From contig JAYENL010000130.1 of NCBI GenBank assembly GCA_034722055.1, positions 3,772 to 67,771 of the forward strand: a stretch of 64,000 bases of DNA. The letters are read 5' to 3'. Made by a program: the position numbers and the translations under genes. Shown one piece after another: positions 54,475 to 61,265 of this stretch; within the stretch, counting starts at the first letter, position 1, and each line of letters starts with the position of its first letter. The notes beneath the pieces were generated by a model, which worked only from the letters and a program-made list of their open reading frames with translations, made no database searches and was not told the DNA's origin. Origin of the DNA: Armatimonadota bacterium (GTDB lineage Bacteria; Armatimonadota; Zipacnadia; Zipacnadales; UBA5352).

Positions 54475-54633
54475 GCCGCCAGCGCACTCGTCCCGCCAGG
54501 CCCGGCGCCCGCTGCGCCGGGCCTTCTGCGCGCAGGGCTGCTACCGGCATGGGCAGGCGAAGGCGGCCTGAGGCGCGTCTTTCAGGTGGACGGTTCGGAG
54601 GTGCGGGAGAGCGTCCGACTGAACTGCGCGCGG

Positions 54634-55011
54634 CTACGAGACACGCACCCCGCACTCGGGGCAGAAGCTGGCCTCCGCCGGCAGCGTCGCGCCGCACTCG
54701 GGACAGGTGGGCTGTGTCTGCGCCTCGTCGGACTGCTCGTCCGCGCGCAGGTCCTTGATCTGGGCGCGTATCTCCATCATCTGGGCCTCGATCTCCCTGG
54801 CGCGCTCGATGAGCACGGCCAGCTCCTCGTCGTGGACCTGCCGCATGGTCAGCAGCTCCCTGGCGCGCTTGCCGGCCTCCTCGTACGCCCGATCAAGGTC
54901 GTTCTCCAGCGCCCCCATCTTGGTCTGCAGCTTCAGGATCTCCGCCTCTCGGCCGGCGGAGCCGGCAAGATCCCCTATCGCCTCTCTGGCCTTCCTCAGG
55001 AAGTCATCCAT
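54634..55011 (-). CDS. Coiled-coil protein with a C-terminal zinc ribbon
   Basis: TCPECGATLPAEASFCPECG. Confidence 0.8.
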   Translation of the reverse strand: MDDFLRKAREAIGDLAGSAGREAEILKLQTKMGALENDLDRAYEEAGKRARELLTMRQVHDEELAVLIERAREIEAQMMEIRAQIKDLRADEQSDEAQTQPTCPECGATLPAEASFCPECGVRVS

Positions 55012-55152
55012 GCTGGCACTCCGAGCCGCTTCCGTGATCTCGCATTCGATTCTTCGGCCCACGCCAGCCGAACACCTGCATGCGGGGAGGACGCCGCGGC
55101 CGGCGACGCGAAGATGAACCTGCAGACAGCCACTCGAGGAGGTGCTCGGAGG

Positions 55153-56544
55153 ATGCTGCTCAGAGCCGCCGTCATGTTAGTCATGATCGCCGTCTGCCTG
55201 GCCGCCCACGCCCAGGCGCCGAAGCTGCTGCTGCGCGCCGCCTTCGACGGCTCGACCGATCTCGAGCCCGGCGGCGAGGGCGAGCTGGTGGCCGCCGAGT
55301 TCGCCGATGGACGCGACGGCCAGGCCATCCGCGCCACCGCCGCGGACCAGCCCGCCGCGCGCATCCCACTGGACGTCGCCAGCGCAGACGAGGGCACGCT
55401 GATGTTCTGGTTCCGCTGCGACGAGCCCAACCCGCCCGACCGCTCGGAGCGGGTTCACTGGACGCCGGTCACCACCGGCGGCGAGCCCGGGCCGCGCATC
55501 GACGTCCACCAGATGTACCACCAGGCCCAGATCCAGGCCCGCAATCCCTGGGGGGAGGACCACTCCGGCGGCGCCCGGGCCGTCTACAGCCACCTCATCC
55601 CCGGCAAGTGGTACCACCTCGCCTACACCTGGCGGAAGGCCGGCAACGACGTCTGCTACTGGCTCTTCGGCGAGGCTCAGAGCGACACTCTCGGCAAGTG
55701 GAATGAGCTGGAACACACCGACGCCCAGTGGGCGGACACGCTCCAGGTCGGCTCCGCGCTCGGCAGCATCGACGATCTGCGCATCTACGATCGCGCCATG
55801 ACCGGCGAGGAAATCCAGGCCGCCGGCGAGTACCGCGACGGGGAGGCCATGTACGATGAGGGCAAGGTCTTCTTCGACACCGTTCTCGACATCGACGCCC
55901 TGAAGGGCGAGCTGATCGCGGAGGACACTTTCGACGAGCCCTGGCAGGGAAACTGGACGCTGGAGGGACCCGGCATCCTGACGCAGGAGGACGGCCGGCT
56001 GCGCCTCCAGGAGCCCGAGCCCGGCACCGAGGGCGCCAACCACATCGTGCTGTGGAACGACACGCCGACGCCCAAGGACTTCATCGCGCAGTGGGACTTC
56101 ACGCCCAATGACGTCGCCGGCCTGTGCATCGTGTTCTTCTCCGCCAAGGGACTGGGCGGGGAGAGGATCTTCGACCCCGGACTGGAGGAGCGCGATGGGA
56201 CCTTCAGCCAGTATCACTCCGGGGATATCAACTGCTACCACATCTCCTACTTCCGCAACACCTGCTCGCGCTCACCCAACACCGCCCTGCGCAAGAACAA
56301 GGGCTTCTGGCGCTGCTCCGCGGGGTATGATTACATTCCGCTGGAGACGGGCGTGACCAGCACCATCACGCTGGTCAAGCGCGGCGCGCACATCCAGTTC
56401 GCCATCAACGATCGCGTCTCCATCGACTGGGTGGACGACGGGGTCAGCCGCGGCCCGGTCTGGGGCGGAGGGCACATCGGCCTCCGCCAGATGATGACCA
56501 CCGATGGCTGGTACGACAACTTCCGCGTGTGGGCGATCAAGTAG
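55153..56544 (+). CDS. Secreted LamG-like plus YesU/DUF1961 family protein
   Basis: Signal peptide; WYHLAYTW...IDDLRIYDRA; GLCIVFF, YHSGDINCYHISYFR, LRKNKGF, GGHIGLRQM. Confidence 0.8.
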   Translation: MLLRAAVMLVMIAVCLAAHAQAPKLLLRAAFDGSTDLEPGGEGELVAAEFADGRDGQAIRATAADQPAARIPLDVASADEGTLMFWFRCDEPNPPDRSERVHWTPVTTGGEPGPRIDVHQMYHQAQIQARNPWGEDHSGGARAVYSHLIPGKWYHLAYTWRKAGNDVCYWLFGEAQSDTLGKWNELEHTDAQWADTLQVGSALGSIDDLRIYDRAMTGEEIQAAGEYRDGEAMYDEGKVFFDTVLDIDALKGELIAEDTFDEPWQGNWTLEGPGILTQEDGRLRLQEPEPGTEGANHIVLWNDTPTPKDFIAQWDFTPNDVAGLCIVFFSAKGLGGERIFDPGLEERDGTFSQYHSGDINCYHISYFRNTCSRSPNTALRKNKGFWRCSAGYDYIPLETGVTSTITLVKRGAHIQFAINDRVSIDWVDDGVSRGPVWGGGHIGLRQMMTTDGWYDNFRVWAIK

Positions 56545-56563
56545 CGCCGGGGAGACCAGGAAC

Positions 56564-56881
56564 ATGGACCTCGACGAGGCGCTGCGACAACTGAGGGCGG
56601 AGCTCGAGGAGCTCTACGGCGAGCGCCTCAAGGGCCTGTATCTGTTCGGCTCCCGCGCCCGCGGCGACGCCGAGCCGGACTCGGACGTGGACGTGGCCGT
56701 GGTGCTGGACGACTTCGAGTACGAGTCAGACGAGCTCACGCGCATGGCGCCGGTGCTGAACAGGCTGTCGCTTGAATGTGACCTGGTCTTCGCTGCGGTC
56801 CCGATCCGCGCCAGCGAATGGGCAGGTGGCGGCAGCCCCCTGATGCTGAATCTCCGTCGCGAGGGAGTGCCGCTGCCATGA
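56564..56881 (+). CDS. MNT nucleotidyltransferase, array copy 1
   Basis: LFGSRARGDAEPDSDVD. Confidence 0.9.
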   Translation: MDLDEALRQLRAELEELYGERLKGLYLFGSRARGDAEPDSDVDVAVVLDDFEYESDELTRMAPVLNRLSLECDLVFAAVPIRASEWAGGGSPLMLNLRREGVPLP

Positions 56882-57267
56882 CCGAGGAGATGCGCGTACT
56901 GCTGGCCGACGCAAGGCGGAATGCGTCGGCCGCACGTGACTTGCTGGATCGGGGAGACTCGGACGACATCGCGGCCTCTCGAGCCTACTACGCCATGTTC
57001 TACGTCGCTGAGGCCGCCCTGCTCAGCCTCGACCTGTCCTACAGCAAGCACCAGGCCGTGGTGTCGGCGTTCGGCAGGGAGTTCGCCAAGGGCGGGATAC
57101 TCCCCCGGGAGCTTCACGGCCACCTTCGGGAAGCGTTTGGGCTGCGCCAGACGGCCGACTACGCCACGGGGGCGAGCGTGTCCCGCGCTGCTGCGGAGGA
57201 AGTCGTTGACCGCGCCGAGCAGTTCATCGACGCCATCGAGGATTACCTGCGGCAGCAGACAGAGTAG
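56878..57267 (+). CDS. HEPN domain protein, array copy 1
   Basis: SRAYYAMF, SKH, FGREF, LRQTADY; ATGA overlap. Confidence 0.88.
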   Translation: MTEEMRVLLADARRNASAARDLLDRGDSDDIAASRAYYAMFYVAEAALLSLDLSYSKHQAVVSAFGREFAKGGILPRELHGHLREAFGLRQTADYATGASVSRAAAEEVVDRAEQFIDAIEDYLRQQTE

Positions 57268-57459
57268 CTCGGAACCTCGCGCTCCAGGCCGGTTGGTGAG
57301 GTAGATGGACCTTCACGAGGCGCTGCGACAACTGAGGGCGGAGCTTGAGGAGCTCTACGGTGAGCGCCTCAAGGGTCTGTATCTGTTCGGCTCCCGCGCC
57401 CGCGGCGACGCCGAGCCGGACTCGGACGTGGACGTGGCCGTGGTGCTGGACGACTTCGA
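57214..57459 (+). repeat. 246-bp direct repeat (HEPN 3' end, spacer, MNT 5' half)
   Basis: Near-identical to 57952-58197; partial copies at 56564-56718 and 58690-58726. Confidence 0.9.
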
Positions 57460-57622
57460 CTCGGCATTCGAGGAGATCGACCGGATGGCTGAGGTCGGGA
57501 CCCGGATCTCGCTGGCGGCGGATCTCGCTATCACCAAGATACCTCTCACCGAGGCCCAGTGGCGAGATAAGCAGACGGCGTTCCTGCGCAACGCCCGCCG
57601 GGAGGCGGTGAGCATCGAGTGA
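57305..57622 (+). CDS. MNT nucleotidyltransferase, array copy 2
   Basis: LFGSRARGDAEPDSDVD; GAGGT RBS. Confidence 0.9.
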   Translation: MDLHEALRQLRAELEELYGERLKGLYLFGSRARGDAEPDSDVDVAVVLDDFDSAFEEIDRMAEVGTRISLAADLAITKIPLTEAQWRDKQTAFLRNARREAVSIE

Positions 57623-58005
57623 ATGAAGAGCAGGCGGCAATGGTGGGAAGGGCACGCAGCGCACTCAGGCTGGCGCGTGTCGCCCTGCGCGAGGATGAGG
57701 CGAATGCCGCCGCATCGCAGGCGTACTACGCCATGTTCCACGCGGCCAATGCTGCCCTGGCATCACTGGGTCTTGGCTTCTCGAAGCACTCGGCGGTCCA
57801 GAGCGCCTTCGGTCGCGAATTCGCCAAGACTGGCCGCCTGCCCCGGCAACTGCATCGCTGGCTGATCTCCGCCTTCGAGAAGCGGGTCATAGCAAACTAC
57901 GACTACACGTCGCATGTCGAGGACGAAGAGGCGAGCGAAGTCGTCGAGCAGGCCGAGCAGTTCATCGCCGCCATCGAGGATTACCTGCGGGAGCAGACAG
58001 AGTAG
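57619..58005 (+). CDS. HEPN domain protein, array copy 2
   Basis: QAYYAMFH, SKHSAV, FGREF, KRVIANY; GTGA overlap. Confidence 0.88.
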   Translation: MNEEQAAMVGRARSALRLARVALREDEANAAASQAYYAMFHAANAALASLGLGFSKHSAVQSAFGREFAKTGRLPRQLHRWLISAFEKRVIANYDYTSHVEDEEASEVVEQAEQFIAAIEDYLREQTE

Positions 58006-58197
58006 CTCGGACCCTCGTGCTCCAGGCCGGTCGGTGAGGTACATGGACCTTGACGAGGCGCTGCGACAACTGAGGGCGGAGCTCGAGGAGCTCTACGGCG
58101 AACGCCTCAGAGGCCTGTATCTGTTCGGCTCCCGCGCACGCGGCGACGCCGAGCCGGACTCGGACGTGGACGTGGCGGTTGTGCTGGACGACTTCGA
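57952..58197 (+). repeat. 246-bp direct repeat, second full copy
   Basis: Near-identical to 57214-57459. Confidence 0.9.
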
Positions 58198-58360
58198 GTC
58201 GGTCTACACGGAGATCAGGCGCATGTCGGAGGTCGGCGCCCGGACATCTCTCGATCTCGACCTGCACGTTAGCCTCATCCCGGTGCGTGAGGCCGACTGG
58301 CGTGAAGGGACGAGTATATTCCTCCGCAACGTCGCTCGGGAAGGAGTCTCGGTCCATTGA
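58043..58360 (+). CDS. MNT nucleotidyltransferase, array copy 3
   Basis: LFGSRARGDAEPDSDVD; GAGGT RBS. Confidence 0.9.
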   Translation: MDLDEALRQLRAELEELYGERLRGLYLFGSRARGDAEPDSDVDVAVVLDDFESVYTEIRRMSEVGARTSLDLDLHVSLIPVREADWREGTSIFLRNVAREGVSVH

Positions 58361-58737
58361 ACCCCGAGGTGCGCGGCAAGCTTGATCGCGCTGGATCATC
58401 ATTGGAGGCGGCGCGCGTCCTGGCGGCTGAGGATCTGGCCAACCAGGCGGCTGCCGAGGCGTATTACGCGATGTTCCACGCCGCGACCGCGGCCCTGGCC
58501 GCACGTGACCAAAGCTACTCCAAGCACTCAGCGGTGATAAGCGCCTTCGGCCGCGAGTTCGCGAAGACCGGCGAACTGCCGGCGGAACTGCACCGGCGAC
58601 TCCGGGAGGCCTTTGAGACCCGCCTCTCGGCGACGTATGACTACACCCACCAAGTGACCGTTGCCGAGGCCGTCGCTCTCTGCGACGAGGCCGAGCAGTT
58701 CATCGCCGCCATCGAGCACTACCTGCAGCGGCGATAG
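58357..58737 (+). CDS. HEPN domain protein, array copy 3
   Basis: EAYYAMFH, SKHSAV, FGREF, TRLSATY; TTGA overlap. Confidence 0.88.
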   Translation: MNPEVRGKLDRAGSSLEAARVLAAEDLANQAAAEAYYAMFHAATAALAARDQSYSKHSAVISAFGREFAKTGELPAELHRRLREAFETRLSATYDYTHQVTVAEAVALCDEAEQFIAAIEHYLQRR

Positions 58738-58740
58738 CCA

Positions 58741-59181
58741 TCATGACTGCGCCTGGGAGGGAACGTCCTCTTCGCGCTTGAGCCCAGGGACGGAAGAGAG
58801 CTTGCGGTCGAAGGAGTAGAGCCGCCCCTCGCACTCCTCCAGCGCTGCCGCACAGGCGCAGGCGTCTCCGAAGTGCTTCACCGTGTCCCTGAAGAGCCGC
58901 AAGGCGCGCAAATACCGCGGCGTATCGGTCATCAAGAAGCCATCGGTCTGGAGAAGGGGAATGAGCCCGTCGCTGATTTCCTCGTTGGGCAGTTCGTAAT
59001 AGGAGGAGGGCACGTAGACTACCTCAGCAAGCGTCACAGGGTCGCAGACTACTGCAGCCTTCCCCCGCTGCGCGCTGCGGAGAATCGTGGCCGCCTTGGC
59101 TGCCAGGGCTTCCTCGTCTCGCAGCAGGAAGCGCAGAATCACGTTGGCGTCGATTACCCACAGTTCCCGCGTGTTACTCAT
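58741..59181 (-). CDS. PIN domain (VapC-like) toxin
   Basis: VIDANVILR, TLAEVV, FGDA, YSFD. Confidence 0.87.
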   Translation of the reverse strand: MSNTRELWVIDANVILRFLLRDEEALAAKAATILRSAQRGKAAVVCDPVTLAEVVYVPSSYYELPNEEISDGLIPLLQTDGFLMTDTPRYLRALRLFRDTVKHFGDACACAAALEECEGRLYSFDRKLSSVPGLKREEDVPSQAQS

Positions 59182-59425
59182 CCGCCACCTGCTTGGCTAC
59201 AGCTTCCTGCGCCTCACGCCGGACGGTGTCCCACTCGGCATCCCTGCCCTGCGCGTACTCGTGGAAGATCCCGAACAGCTCGTCAACCGATCTGAGAGGC
59301 CACAGCACTGCCTCATCCTCGCGGGCCTCCAGTGCCAACTCGTCCCCGGGCTGTATACCCAGCTTCCGACGAACATCGGCAGGTATCGTGATGCGGCCCT
59401 GTTCCGAGACCCTGACCTTTGTCAT
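59174..59425 (-). CDS. AbrB/MazE-type antitoxin
   Basis: VSEQGRITIPADVRRKLGIQPGD; AGGAGGT RBS; overlaps the PIN start. Confidence 0.88.
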   Translation of the reverse strand: MTKVRVSEQGRITIPADVRRKLGIQPGDELALEAREDEAVLWPLRSVDELFGIFHEYAQGRDAEWDTVRREAQEAVAKQVADE

Positions 59426-59609
59426 GTCGGCGTACCTCCTGCTCTCCATCTTACCCATGTTCCCAGGACCGCACAAGACGCCGCATGGGCCCCGAAACTC
59501 GGAGGCTCCAAGACCGCTCCGACCAGGACGAGCTTTCAGCCCGCCAGGCAGCGAACGCCCGAGAGGTCCGGAGGGTGATTCCTCACGCCGGATCGAGGCG
59601 GGAGCCGAC

Positions 59610-61265
59610 TCAGGAGCGGTCAGTTCGGCGCAGCAGCACGCCGCCGTCGTCGAAGCGCTTGACGATCTCGAATCCCGGCAGCGGCTGCTCCCCCGCCATG
59701 ATCGGCTCCCAGGCGACGGTCATCCCCCGGTTGCCGGGGCGGTGCTTGATATGCACCCAGTCCGCGGGCACCATCTGCTCGTGCATGCGGAGGAACTGCT
59801 CCGGCGTCAGCGGCAGGCCGATGGCGTACATCCCCGGGCTCCACGCCACCAGCGCGTGGTGCGTGGACACCACCACGTCGTCCTGCGAGCCGTGGGAGGA
59901 GAGGTATCCCGCCAGCGTCCGGGCCCGCTCGAGCGCCTCCTGGTGATAGGGCCCGACGGCCAGGTCGAACAGCGTCGGGACGGCCATGAGGGCCACGATG
60001 AGCCCCAGGGGGATCACCGCCAGCCGCATGGAGGCGCCGTAGCGGCGCAGCAGCTCGAAGCCGAAGGCCGCGCCCAGCGTAGCGCAGAGCGGCCCCAGCG
60101 GGTCCAGATAGCGGTTCACCGAGACCCCGCCGTGCCCGTAGGACGCCAGCGGCAGCAGCAGCAGTTGCTCGGCCGCCAGAGCGTAGACCAGCCAGTGCAG
60201 GCGCACTCGCTTCCCGCCCGCCAGCACCACCACCATCTCCGCCACGAACAGCGCCACCAGCAGGGCCATGCCGCCCATGGTCACGAAGTCCGGCCACGCC
60301 CGTTCCGCGATCCGGGCGTACTTGCGGGCCATCACGCCCGGGTGCGCGCGGATGAACTCCAGCGTCCCCCAGCTCTCCAGCACGTGTGAGGAGCCCCGGC
60401 CGGGATACAGGCCCGTGTCGCGCCGAGTGCTGATGTCCTGCTGCGCCGAGTAGCCGAACTCCCCGGCCAGATGCTGCATCTGCAGCCCCCACCAGACCAT
60501 CGCGATAATCAGCGGGATGCAGAACATCAGCGCGCGGCCTACGGCTCGGAGCCAGCCGGCGTCCCAGGAGCGCCACAGGACGAACAGGACCATCAGCGGC
60601 GCCCACAGCATCATCGTCGAGCGCCCCAGATAGCCGATGCCCACCGCCCCTCCCGCGGCCAGGGCCACCGGCCAGGTCAGCCGGAACGTGAAGAGGTAGG
60701 CCACGGCCGCCAGCGCGAAGATGGTGCTGCTCTCCGTCAGGCCCGTGACGCCGTACCATAGCCCGGCCGGTGAGAGAGTGTAGCCGCAGGCCGCCAGGGC
60801 TCCGGCGCCTCGTCCCCCAAGCCGGTCGCCGAGGAGGAACACCAGGGGCACCGAGAGCACGAAGAAGACCCCGGACGAGAGCGCCACCGCCGTGGGCTCG
60901 GAGGTCACGTGCGTCAGCGCAGCGATGGCCATCACGGGGAGCGGGGCACGCGTGGCGCTGGGCCAGGGCGGGTCCTCCCTCCCCCGCTCGGCCAGGCCGG
61001 CGACCATCGACGGAACGGCCGCTCGGGTGGTGAAGCCCCTCCCGGCCGCCAGCTCCCGCGCCGCCGCCACCGCCTCCATGGTGTCCTCGCGAGGCAACAC
61101 GTGGAAGTCGGTCCGCGCCAGGTAGGCTGCATAGACGGCGGCGGCCAGCACCAGCACGATGAGCGCTGCTCGCGCCGGCGGGCGAGCCGGGCCCTCCTGC
61201 CCGCCGGCGCCTTCCCCGCCCTCTCCGCCCGGGCCGGACCTCCGCTCATCGACCACCCTGGTCAC
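59610..61265 (-). CDS. GT-C (PMT/ArnT-like) membrane glycosyltransferase
   Basis: Multi-TM; ED..EAVAAARELAAGRGF, RAPL, GLTES, NRYLDP. Confidence 0.75.
   Translation of the reverse strand: MTRVVDERRSGPGGEGGEGAGGQEGPARPPARAALIVLVLAAAVYAAYLARTDFHVLPREDTMEAVAAARELAAGRGFTTRAAVPSMVAGLAERGREDPPWPSATRAPLPVMAIAALTHVTSEPTAVALSSGVFFVLSVPLVFLLGDRLGGRGAGALAACGYTLSPAGLWYGVTGLTESSTIFALAAVAYLFTFRLTWPVALAAGGAVGIGYLGRSTMMLWAPLMVLFVLWRSWDAGWLRAVGRALMFCIPLIIAMVWWGLQMQHLAGEFGYSAQQDISTRRDTGLYPGRGSSHVLESWGTLEFIRAHPGVMARKYARIAERAWPDFVTMGGMALLVALFVAEMVVVLAGGKRVRLHWLVYALAAEQLLLLPLASYGHGGVSVNRYLDPLGPLCATLGAAFGFELLRRYGASMRLAVIPLGLIVALMAVPTLFDLAVGPYHQEALERARTLAGYLSSHGSQDDVVVSTHHALVAWSPGMYAIGLPLTPEQFLRMHEQMVPADWVHIKHRPGNRGMTVAWEPIMAGEQPLPGFEIVKRFDDGGVLLRRTDRS

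Follow-up and report, generated by a model that had tools for sequence, protein, structure and literature searches.

A tandem array of three MNT-HEPN pairs with alike catalytic halves and long-diverged putative recognition halves in an Armatimonadota genome: probable segmental gene conversion

How can three neighbouring gene pairs be nearly identical over one segment and so different over the remainder? This question is raised by an array of MNT-HEPN pairs, each consisting of a small nucleotidyltransferase gene (MNT) and a HEPN gene, at positions 56564-58737 of the DNA analysed here, a stretch of 64,000 nucleotides (nt; the window) from an Armatimonadota bacterium. The genome is a metagenome-assembled genome (MAG) of 6.14 Mb in 330 contigs, and the window lies on contig C130 (JAYENL010000130.1). 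We consider, with a probability of about three in four, that the pairs are ancient tandem paralogues in which the catalytic half of the MNT has been kept alike by segmental gene conversion, and that the edge of the conserved part comes from the divergence of the recognition half and the toxin, probably reinforced by selection. Below, G000 denotes the window genome, G001 its congener and the labels from G003 to G017 other relatives of the family; U1, U2 and U3 are the three successive pairs of the G000 array, and Ua and Ub are units in relatives.

The pairs stand head to tail on the + strand, with the periods of 741 and 738 nt that a sequence-only reading of the window had given and that a repeat search confirmed. 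The MNT genes (MNT1, 56564-56881; MNT2, 57305-57622; MNT3, 58043-58360; all +) encode antitoxin-like nucleotidyltransferases of 105 residues, and all three match PF01909 (NTP_transf_2; 48.9-53.4 bits, cut-off 21; E-values 4e-14 to 9e-13, or 3.6e-14, 9e-13 and 5.6e-13 in array order). The HEPN genes start with three different codons, each overlapping the stop codon of the preceding MNT by 4 nt: HEPN1 (56878-57267, +; 129 residues) with ATG, HEPN2 (57619-58005, +; 128 residues) with GTG and HEPN3 (58357-58737, +; 126 residues) with TTG. Their products all match PF05168 (51-60 bits, cut-off 22; E-values 3e-16, 1.1e-15 and 2e-13), and each pair has the composition of the two-gene MNT-HEPN module (NTP_transf_2 plus HEPN). 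Consecutive units are separated by a spacer of 37 nt with a ribosome-binding site (RBS). We found no promoter-like site in or around the array, and the one terminator-like site at the array lies on the opposite strand and is no more than shuffled sequences give. As separate promoters and terminators were not found inside the array, the three pairs probably form one transcript.

Identity among the units is very unevenly distributed. Over MNT nt 1-153 it reaches 97% between U1 and U2, 95% between U1 and U3 and 93% between U2 and U3, compared with 49-57% over MNT nt 154-315; the roughly 490 nt of each unit outside the block (MNT C-half plus most of the HEPN) are 35-70% identical overall. Scanned in windows of 30 nt, identity declines from 0.93-1.00 to 0.57-0.77 inside about 30 nt and then stays at 0.33-0.80 through the remainder of the MNT and the HEPN. 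By mismatch strings, this 3' edge falls within nt ~150-156 of the MNT for each of the three G000 pairs, which is the sharp step after about codon 51 that the sequence-only reading had expected of a sliding-window comparison. The 'almost identical' block of 246 bp described by that reading is 93-97% identical over MNT codons 1-51, short of true identity. Only at the two internal junctions does the block also take in the HEPN 3' end and the 37-nt spacer: MNT2 and MNT3 agree in 75 of the 80 nt that precede them. By the same mismatch strings, copy 1 (56559-56718, +) begins about 5 nt ahead of the MNT1 ATG and extends through codon 51. Copy 2 (57214-57459, +) comprises the HEPN1 3' end, the spacer with its RBS and MNT2 codons 1-51, and copy 3 (57952-58197, +) comprises the HEPN2 3' end, the spacer and MNT3 codons 1-51; these two are 93% identical over the 246-nt query. 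Partial copies had been claimed for both array ends. The HEPN3 3' end (58666-58726) is 80-84% like the other HEPN ends, a likeness that is largely conservation at the protein level. The suggested search for further block copies elsewhere in the genome gave none: outside the array, the 6.14 Mb contain only four short matches (80-96% over 26-60 nt). Tandem Repeats Finder reported no tandem repeat over the array because the units are too diverged overall.

The two segments also tell conflicting histories. In the N-half DNA tree, sequences cluster by genome or genus (G000 U1-3 with G001, support 89/94; G013 Ua with Ub, 91/99). In contrast, the C-half tree groups units by cassette type across genomes, with a type-1 clade of G000_U1, G010_Ua and G015_Ub (100/99) and a type-3 clade of G000_U3 and G001_Ua (99/99), the C-half of MNT3 being 91% identical to that of G001_Ua; G015_Ua joins G003_Ua (97/97). 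The HEPN protein tree recovers the type-1 clade, HEPN1 included, again with 100/99, and unites G000_U3 with the HEPN of G010 contig C172 in a type-3 clade (98/98). This agreement of the C-half and HEPN trees on the cassette types bears out the earlier proposal that the MNT C-half and its HEPN are inherited as a linked unit. In approximately unbiased (AU) tests, the C-half data rejected a clade of the three G000 units (p 2e-44) and a clade of G015 Ua and Ub (p 9e-6), the HEPN protein data rejected the G000 trio (p 8e-33), and the N-half data rejected the type-1 clade (p 7e-50) and the type-2 clade (p 7e-5). The three cassette types are old paralogues common to several genera, and nothing points to their having been imported recently. 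Similarity within genomes that exceeds similarity between genomes, together with tree conflict between segments, is what marks concerted evolution by interlocus gene conversion, and both are found here.

Synonymous divergence (dS, estimated by the Nei-Gojobori method on short segments of 50-54 codons) points in the same direction. Over MNT codons 2-51, dS among the G000 units is 0.11, 0.17 and 0.24, and between the paired units of G015 and G013 it is 0.25 and 0.31, respectively. Over codons 52-105 it is 1.24-1.84 in G000 and ranges from 1.24 to saturation over the five within-genome pairs, in which Fisher tests of synonymous differences in the N-half versus the C-half gave p-values from 2e-7 to 5e-4. 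The uneven divergence noted at first is real; it lies at synonymous sites and is not due to constraint on the protein. The flanking DUF1961 gene provides a yardstick, with a dS of 0.35 between G000 and G001 and of 0.54-1.05 against other genera. Since the N-half values in G000 lie below 0.35, the N-halves were last equalised after the two congeneric species had separated, and the variable parts are older than the genera. Between genomes, N-half dS is 0.42-1.09; the pooled N-half synonymous difference is 0.19 within genomes versus 0.47 between genomes for equal cassette type. As the between-genome values are no lower than those of the flanking gene, the synonymous sites of the block are unconstrained across genomes and homogenised only within them.

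The same mosaic recurs in the two-unit relatives G015, G013 and G010, whose N-halves are alike and carry genome-specific substitutions. The two units of G015 are 93% identical in the N-half versus 46% in the C-half, and those of G013 93% versus 49%; in G010, from a third genus, the type-1 and type-3 units lie on two contigs and share 91 of 93 nt in the N-half versus 72 of 159 in the C-half. A genome census further revealed a second array in G000 (contig C324, 29176-30700; L116:1555-3076) with two MNT-HEPN pairs of another subfamily, whose proteins are 29-39% identical to their counterparts in the first array. Its block, 100% identical between the units, measures about 190 nt and takes in 22 nt of upstream sequence and MNT nt 1 to ~170; the remainder shows 33-87% identity in 30-nt windows, mostly 35-70%. 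Allowing for 8 extra N-terminal residues, the edge in the C324 MNT has the matching position relative to the DxD strand. All homogenised arrays have their 3' edge at an equal structural position, namely nt ~180 in the longer MNT of C324 and nt ~150-156 in the others; the 5' edge differs between arrays (-5, at least -80, -56, ~0 and -22). The G015 block takes in an intergenic element and not the HEPN 3' end. We noticed there an upstream segment of about 56 nt common to both units (L013:1446-1501 and L013:2250-2305), with a GC-rich hairpin-forming repeat GCACGGGCG ... CGCCCGTGC.

We propose the following scenario. The array would be an operon-like set of three anciently diverged HEPN-T/PF05168-type pairs in a variable slot, in which non-reciprocal gene conversion between neighbouring units would repeatedly overwrite the 5' half of the MNT, on occasion together with adjacent upstream sequence. 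The half of the MNT that contains the catalytic site (α1, β1, the GSX10DXD loop and β2) would thereby evolve in concert within the genome. The conversion tracts would end in the loop after β2, the MNT C-half (α2-β3-α3-α4) and the HEPN having diverged to about 50% identity. Two causes of this edge seem likely: a heteroduplex would be unable to extend into such divergence, and selection would act against a longer tract, since it would join an MNT recognition half to a HEPN that is not its own. The three units would end up with a common enzyme core, while each would keep a private recognition half inherited together with its toxin. A side effect of the shared block would be that units can be lost or duplicated by unequal crossing-over, which fits the zero to three units seen at the slot in relatives. 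We infer that the mechanism is conversion and not another form of recombination, and that selection for insulated pairs sets the block edge.

What does the edge separate? In an AlphaFold2 model of MNT2 (mean confidence, pLDDT, 84), α1 spans residues 3-21 and β1 residues 22-28, followed by the G-loop, β2 (42-48), α2 (54-72), β3 (76-82), α3 (83-88) and α4 (92-100), and the block edge falls in the modelled β2-α2 loop, after the catalytic GSX10DXD strand. G29, S30, D41 and D43 of this motif are invariant in 11 of 11 aligned MNTs, and the entire motif lies inside the constant half, as had been supposed. In solved complexes of other MNT-HEPN types, as described in PMC11586414, C-terminal MNT elements bind the HEPN: helix α2 and the α2-β3 loop form the interface in Legionella pneumophila, and the C-terminal helix α4 does so in Shewanella oneidensis and Aphanizomenon flos-aquae. 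By topology, these HEPN-contacting elements would map to the variable MNT half, which probably decides which toxin is matched. A predicted complex of two HEPN2 chains with MNT2 residues 52-105 scored 0.01, the fragment's own fold being uncertain, and this weighs neither for nor against the mapping.

That MNT-HEPN pairs are toxin-antitoxin (TA) modules, as the sequence-only reading took for granted, is established for the DUF86/HepT type, in which the MNT AMPylates a Tyr in the HEPN loop (PMC7641770); the HEPNs of the present array are of the PF05168 type and lack the RX4H histidine. Among 11 aligned HEPNs, R89 and Y94 (R-x4-Y), H57 and H79 are invariant, and position 96 is Tyr in 7 of 11. None of the 11 has the canonical RX4HXY motif, the position of the RX4H His being occupied by Tyr. 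The His is often replaced, with another conserved His present, in HEPN-T proteins (PF05168/COG2250; Anantharaman et al., 2013, PMC3710099, Table 1), and the array HEPNs agree with this description in their PF05168 match, the replaced canonical His and the invariant H57 and H79. The MNTs reach 43.0-45.2 bits with the NCBIfam model MntA_antitoxin (NF047752), below its cut-off of 60, and no NCBIfam HepT model matched at E-values up to 0.001. The best matches in the PDB are 9xbd_A for HEPN2 (E 1.4e-19) and 9xbd_E for MNT2 (E 2.3e-9), from a complex of a HEPN with a nucleotidyltransferase. The position of the R-x4-Y Tyr is Tyr in 9xbd_A versus Phe in 9xbc_A, from a second solved relative, a difference that only hints at the importance of this residue. 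By analogy with the DUF86 type, the pairs could be toxin and antitoxin, the MNTs AMPylating the invariant Tyr of their HEPNs.

The surroundings of the array vary among relatives. The collection used here has 18 genomes of the family, 13 of which, G000 included, have the DUF1961 orthologue, and in these we annotated the slot downstream, that is, the interval between the DUF1961 gene and a membrane glycosyltransferase cluster. Orthologues of the PMT_2-like gene adjoin the slot in G001, G007, G008, G009 and G010 (tblastn). As the sequence-only reading had anticipated, slot content varies: none of the 12 DUF1961-bearing relatives has the same three units on one contig. The G000 slot holds U1-U2-U3 and a PIN/AbrB pair. 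That of G010 has a type-1 unit, a contig break, then a type-3 unit with PIN/AbrB, G007 has a single unit with PIN/AbrB, and G015 has type 2 followed by type 1. In G001 (L010:1487-1869), a type-3 unit with an intact MNT and a HEPN interrupted by a premature stop and a frameshift is followed by a 22-codon MNT fragment; G003 has a type-2 unit with intact MNT and frameshifted HEPN (L014:1492-1870). G013 has a solo MNT and one unit, G016 only an MNT 5' fragment, G014 and G012 no units, and in G017 the contig ends within the first MNT. The G008 slot contains a HEPN and an HTH-MNT fusion, an N-terminal HTH_17 (PF12728, 8e-16) preceding the nucleotidyltransferase (L032:1619-2134), which may be an autoregulating form. 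In G009, an N6/N4 DNA methylase gene (L026:1528-2424; PF01555, 1.6e-47) takes the place of MNT-HEPN, so that the site accepts different accessory genes. Units are thus gained or lost at the slot, which holds from zero to three of them, and the toxin genes decay first, as seen in broken HEPNs beside intact MNTs (G001, G003), the solo MNT of G013 and the MNT 5' fragments of G001 and G016.

Two details of these slots deserve mention. At the end of G010 contig C271 (L034:1-44), about 100 nt past the type-1 HEPN, 44 nt are 91% identical to part of the DUF1961 3' region, a stretch that is either a partly duplicated piece of the flank or a seam joining two strains. We also considered the G001 unit as the product of a deletion by recombination between U1 and U3, an idea that found no support: six of the seven N-half sites that discriminate U1 from U3 are U1-like, but five of these six are merely U3-specific, which leaves one informative site.

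In G000 itself, the array is preceded by the DUF1961/LamG-like gene (54586-56544, +; PF09224, 1e-48; PF13385, 5e-8), the conserved part of which is 55099-56541, the long N-terminal extension of the open reading frame (ORF) being doubtful. It is followed, in convergent orientation, by a PIN-domain (VapC-like) gene (58741-59181, -; PF01850, 2.4e-10) paired with an AbrB/MazE-type antitoxin-like gene (59174-59476, -; PF04014, 6.5e-11; TIGR01439, 1.3e-13), and then by a large gene for a membrane PMT_2-like glycosyltransferase (59610-61265, -; PF13231, 2.7e-4, below cut-off), which forms the conserved end of the slot. The PIN/AbrB pair is a variable neighbour: G000, G007 and G010 have it at this slot, and none was seen there in G001 or G008.

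Could the pattern have arisen otherwise? High nonsynonymous divergence of the variable part among the G000 paralogues (0.50-0.69) would suit a tandem duplication of recent date, after which the MNT C-half and the HEPN came under very fast diversifying selection, the block being simply the part not yet diverged. This is hardly credible, however, with variable-part dS saturated (1.24 to infinity) and with each G000 cassette closer to its counterpart in another genus than to its own array (clades 100/99, 99/99 and 98/98), the G000 trio being rejected (p 2e-44 and 8e-33). An assembly artefact, in which the cassettes of several strains were stitched together via a collapsed conserved segment or block identity was inflated by repeat collapse, would be in keeping with a MAG of 330 contigs, with the splitting of the G010 array over two contigs exactly at the block and with the 100% identity of the C324 block, which could be partly collapse. 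The array DNA is present in four brine-metagenome runs of one study (X1-X4), and the Logan contigs of all four break at the blocks. Nevertheless, these contigs recover the copy-specific block variants with no differences (in X1, for example, 56593-56665, 57316-57399 and 58072-58144). By the crude measure of contig depth, the variable parts in X1 have 18.7, 18.4 and 16.5 versus 16.8 and 16.5 for the flanks, and they are close to the single-copy flanks in all four runs; multi-unit mosaic arrays also occur inside single contigs of G015 and G013. Since independent contigs reproduce the copy-specific variants and cassette depths match the flanks, we regard an assembly error as very unlikely. The runs differ at 57102 (HEPN1, about codon 75), where a 1-nt deletion in the X2 and X4 contigs would frameshift the type-1 HEPN, those of X1 and X3 matching the window. 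Direct constraint on the nucleotides of the block (an RNA structure, an antisense target or a common operator), with identity maintained by purifying selection, is likewise improbable. The block does hold the RBS and spacer, the hairpin-forming repeat lies in the 56-nt upstream segment of both G015 units, and no separate promoters or terminators were found inside the array. Against such constraint, however, stand the differing 5' edges and a between-genome dS that reaches the same level in the block (0.42-1.09) and in the flanking gene (0.54-1.05); moreover, the block RNA fold is unremarkable (z -1.1; 26 of 200 shuffles fold as well) and Rfam gave no match at E-values up to 0.1.

A further alternative is a selected cassette-exchange locus, the block being kept as an anchor that lets MNT-C-half/HEPN cassettes be added, swapped or shuffled within and between strains and so varies the defence or toxin repertoire; its analogues would be orphan CT-immunity arrays and shufflons. 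The slot would then be an expandable array, and brine Armatimonadota strains would differ in their repertoire of HEPN RNases around one AMPylase core. Several observations speak for such an exchange: slot content differs among the 12 relatives (zero, one, two or at least two units, fragments only, or another gene), unit order varies (2-1 in G015, 1-2-3 in G000), MNT 5' fragments stand at array ends in G001 and G016, internal blocks lie on both sides of each variable part, and the MNTs match the PADLOC candidate-defence model PDC-S09 (3e-28 to 3e-31). We still consider it unlikely. Scanning of the neighbouring ORFs and a repeat search yielded no recombinase or integrase, no attC-like site and no orphan cassette at the array, inverted repeats of at least 20 nt are absent from 55500-60000, and the array does not qualify as an integron-type cassette array. 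Nor does it resemble polymorphic toxin-immunity cassettes, as the sequence-only reading had proposed, in having promoterless orphans or delivery domains; neither was found, and all three units are complete and full-length, with their own starts and RBS-bearing spacers. The block has no further copies in the genome, the cassette types are common to several genera, as fits vertical descent with loss, and the G015 and G013 blocks exclude the HEPN 3' end, so that cassettes are not doubly flanked there. Ordinary conversion suffices for the pattern. The constant block is more readily understood as what gene conversion among the tandem paralogues has produced than as the selected recombination anchor first suggested, although its homology would still allow units to be lost and gained by unequal crossing-over.

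Several points weigh against segmental conversion as we have described it, or limit its reach. The AU-test groups were chosen after the trees had been seen, and a clade of G013 Ua and Ub is not rejected on the C-half (AU p 0.08). The short segments make dS noisy, all the genomes are MAGs, and the relatives are not independent; the U2/U3 N-half difference (8 of 38.5 synonymous sites) does not differ significantly, on the lower side, from the type-2 value found between genomes (15 of 38; p 0.13). The U1-U2-U3 order rests on the MAG assembly, given the Logan breaks. The sharp edge may be due to selection or to a homology cliff that is purely mechanical, and nothing observed here tells the two apart directly. 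With the RX4H histidine absent and the MntA model below cut-off, the TA role is putative for this HEPN type. Finally, not every tandem is homogenised. An adjacent b-type MNT pair on G013 contig C49 shows 20-67% identity in 30-nt windows throughout, and a Deinococcota tandem (L110) has no block, only a peak of 67-83% at the catalytic motif. The latter comes from a survey of 80 loci with HEPN relatives in other phyla, five of which had at least two MNT/HEPN hits inside about 4 kb; no homogenised block was found among them, a thin test, L110 being the single true tandem. These two exceptions indicate that the mosaic is recurrent in the family and not general for tandem MNT-HEPN genes.

If our reading is correct, the β2-α2 loop splits an antitoxin-like enzyme of 105 residues into a part that is shared and a part that is private and linked to its HEPN. 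The main value of the locus is then a sharp prediction of where partner specificity resides in HEPN-T/MNT pairs, and the array offers a natural set of chimeras for studying the insulation of paralogous TA pairs. It would also be a case of long-persisting conversion in part of a TA gene, and of tandem TA arrays losing their toxin genes first. For annotation, it serves as a warning: blocks of this kind interrupt short-read assemblies, and MNT gene trees can be misled by them. Should the array instead prove to be selected and expandable, strains would carry different sets of HEPN RNases, directed for instance at phages.

Among known systems, the type VII HepT/MntA modules (S. oneidensis SO_3166/3165, A. 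flos-aquae and L. pneumophila) resemble the array in having a small MNT gene upstream of, and overlapping, a small HEPN gene, in the invariant GSX10DXD of the MNTs and in the invariant Arg and Tyr in the corresponding HEPN loop. They differ in that the array HEPNs belong to PF05168 (HEPN-T) and not DUF86, carry an R-x4-Y motif and accompany MNTs below the cut-off of the MntA model. Our literature searches found no functional study of the HEPN-T/MNT subtype and no work linking HEPN/MNT arrays with gene conversion, and the available text on HEPN-T-MNT pairs (PMC3710099) does not mention segmental homogenisation of tandem units.

Polymorphic toxin and orphan CT-immunity arrays, such as those of contact-dependent inhibition (CDI) and Rhs systems, and hsdS shufflons have constant sequence flanking variable modules, which homologous recombination at the constant part can exchange. 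The array shares with them constant sequence that flanks variable toxin-specificity modules. In contrast to these systems, we found here no delivery domain, no truncated orphans and no invertase or recombinase; unlike in CDI and Rhs arrays, the constant part belongs to the antitoxin-like enzyme and not to the toxin, and the units are complete and presumably expressed.

Both components of the locus, TA modules and concerted evolution, are already known. In Mycobacterium tuberculosis, conversion is reported between the TA paralogues vapBC25 and vapBC31 (PMC13061034); partial gene conversion of prokaryotic paralogues has been described for the duplicated mtrA of methanogens (PMC4632066), and long-lasting concerted evolution has been surveyed (PMC6053082). 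As in these cases, as far as the available texts describe them, paralogues of one genome resemble each other more than orthologues of different genomes do, and this holds for only part of the gene. The array departs from them in that the tract edge coincides with a functional boundary inside a domain, between the catalytic core and the recognition half of an antitoxin, and in that this edge sits at one structural position in each of three genera and in both MNT subfamilies, which are unrelated.

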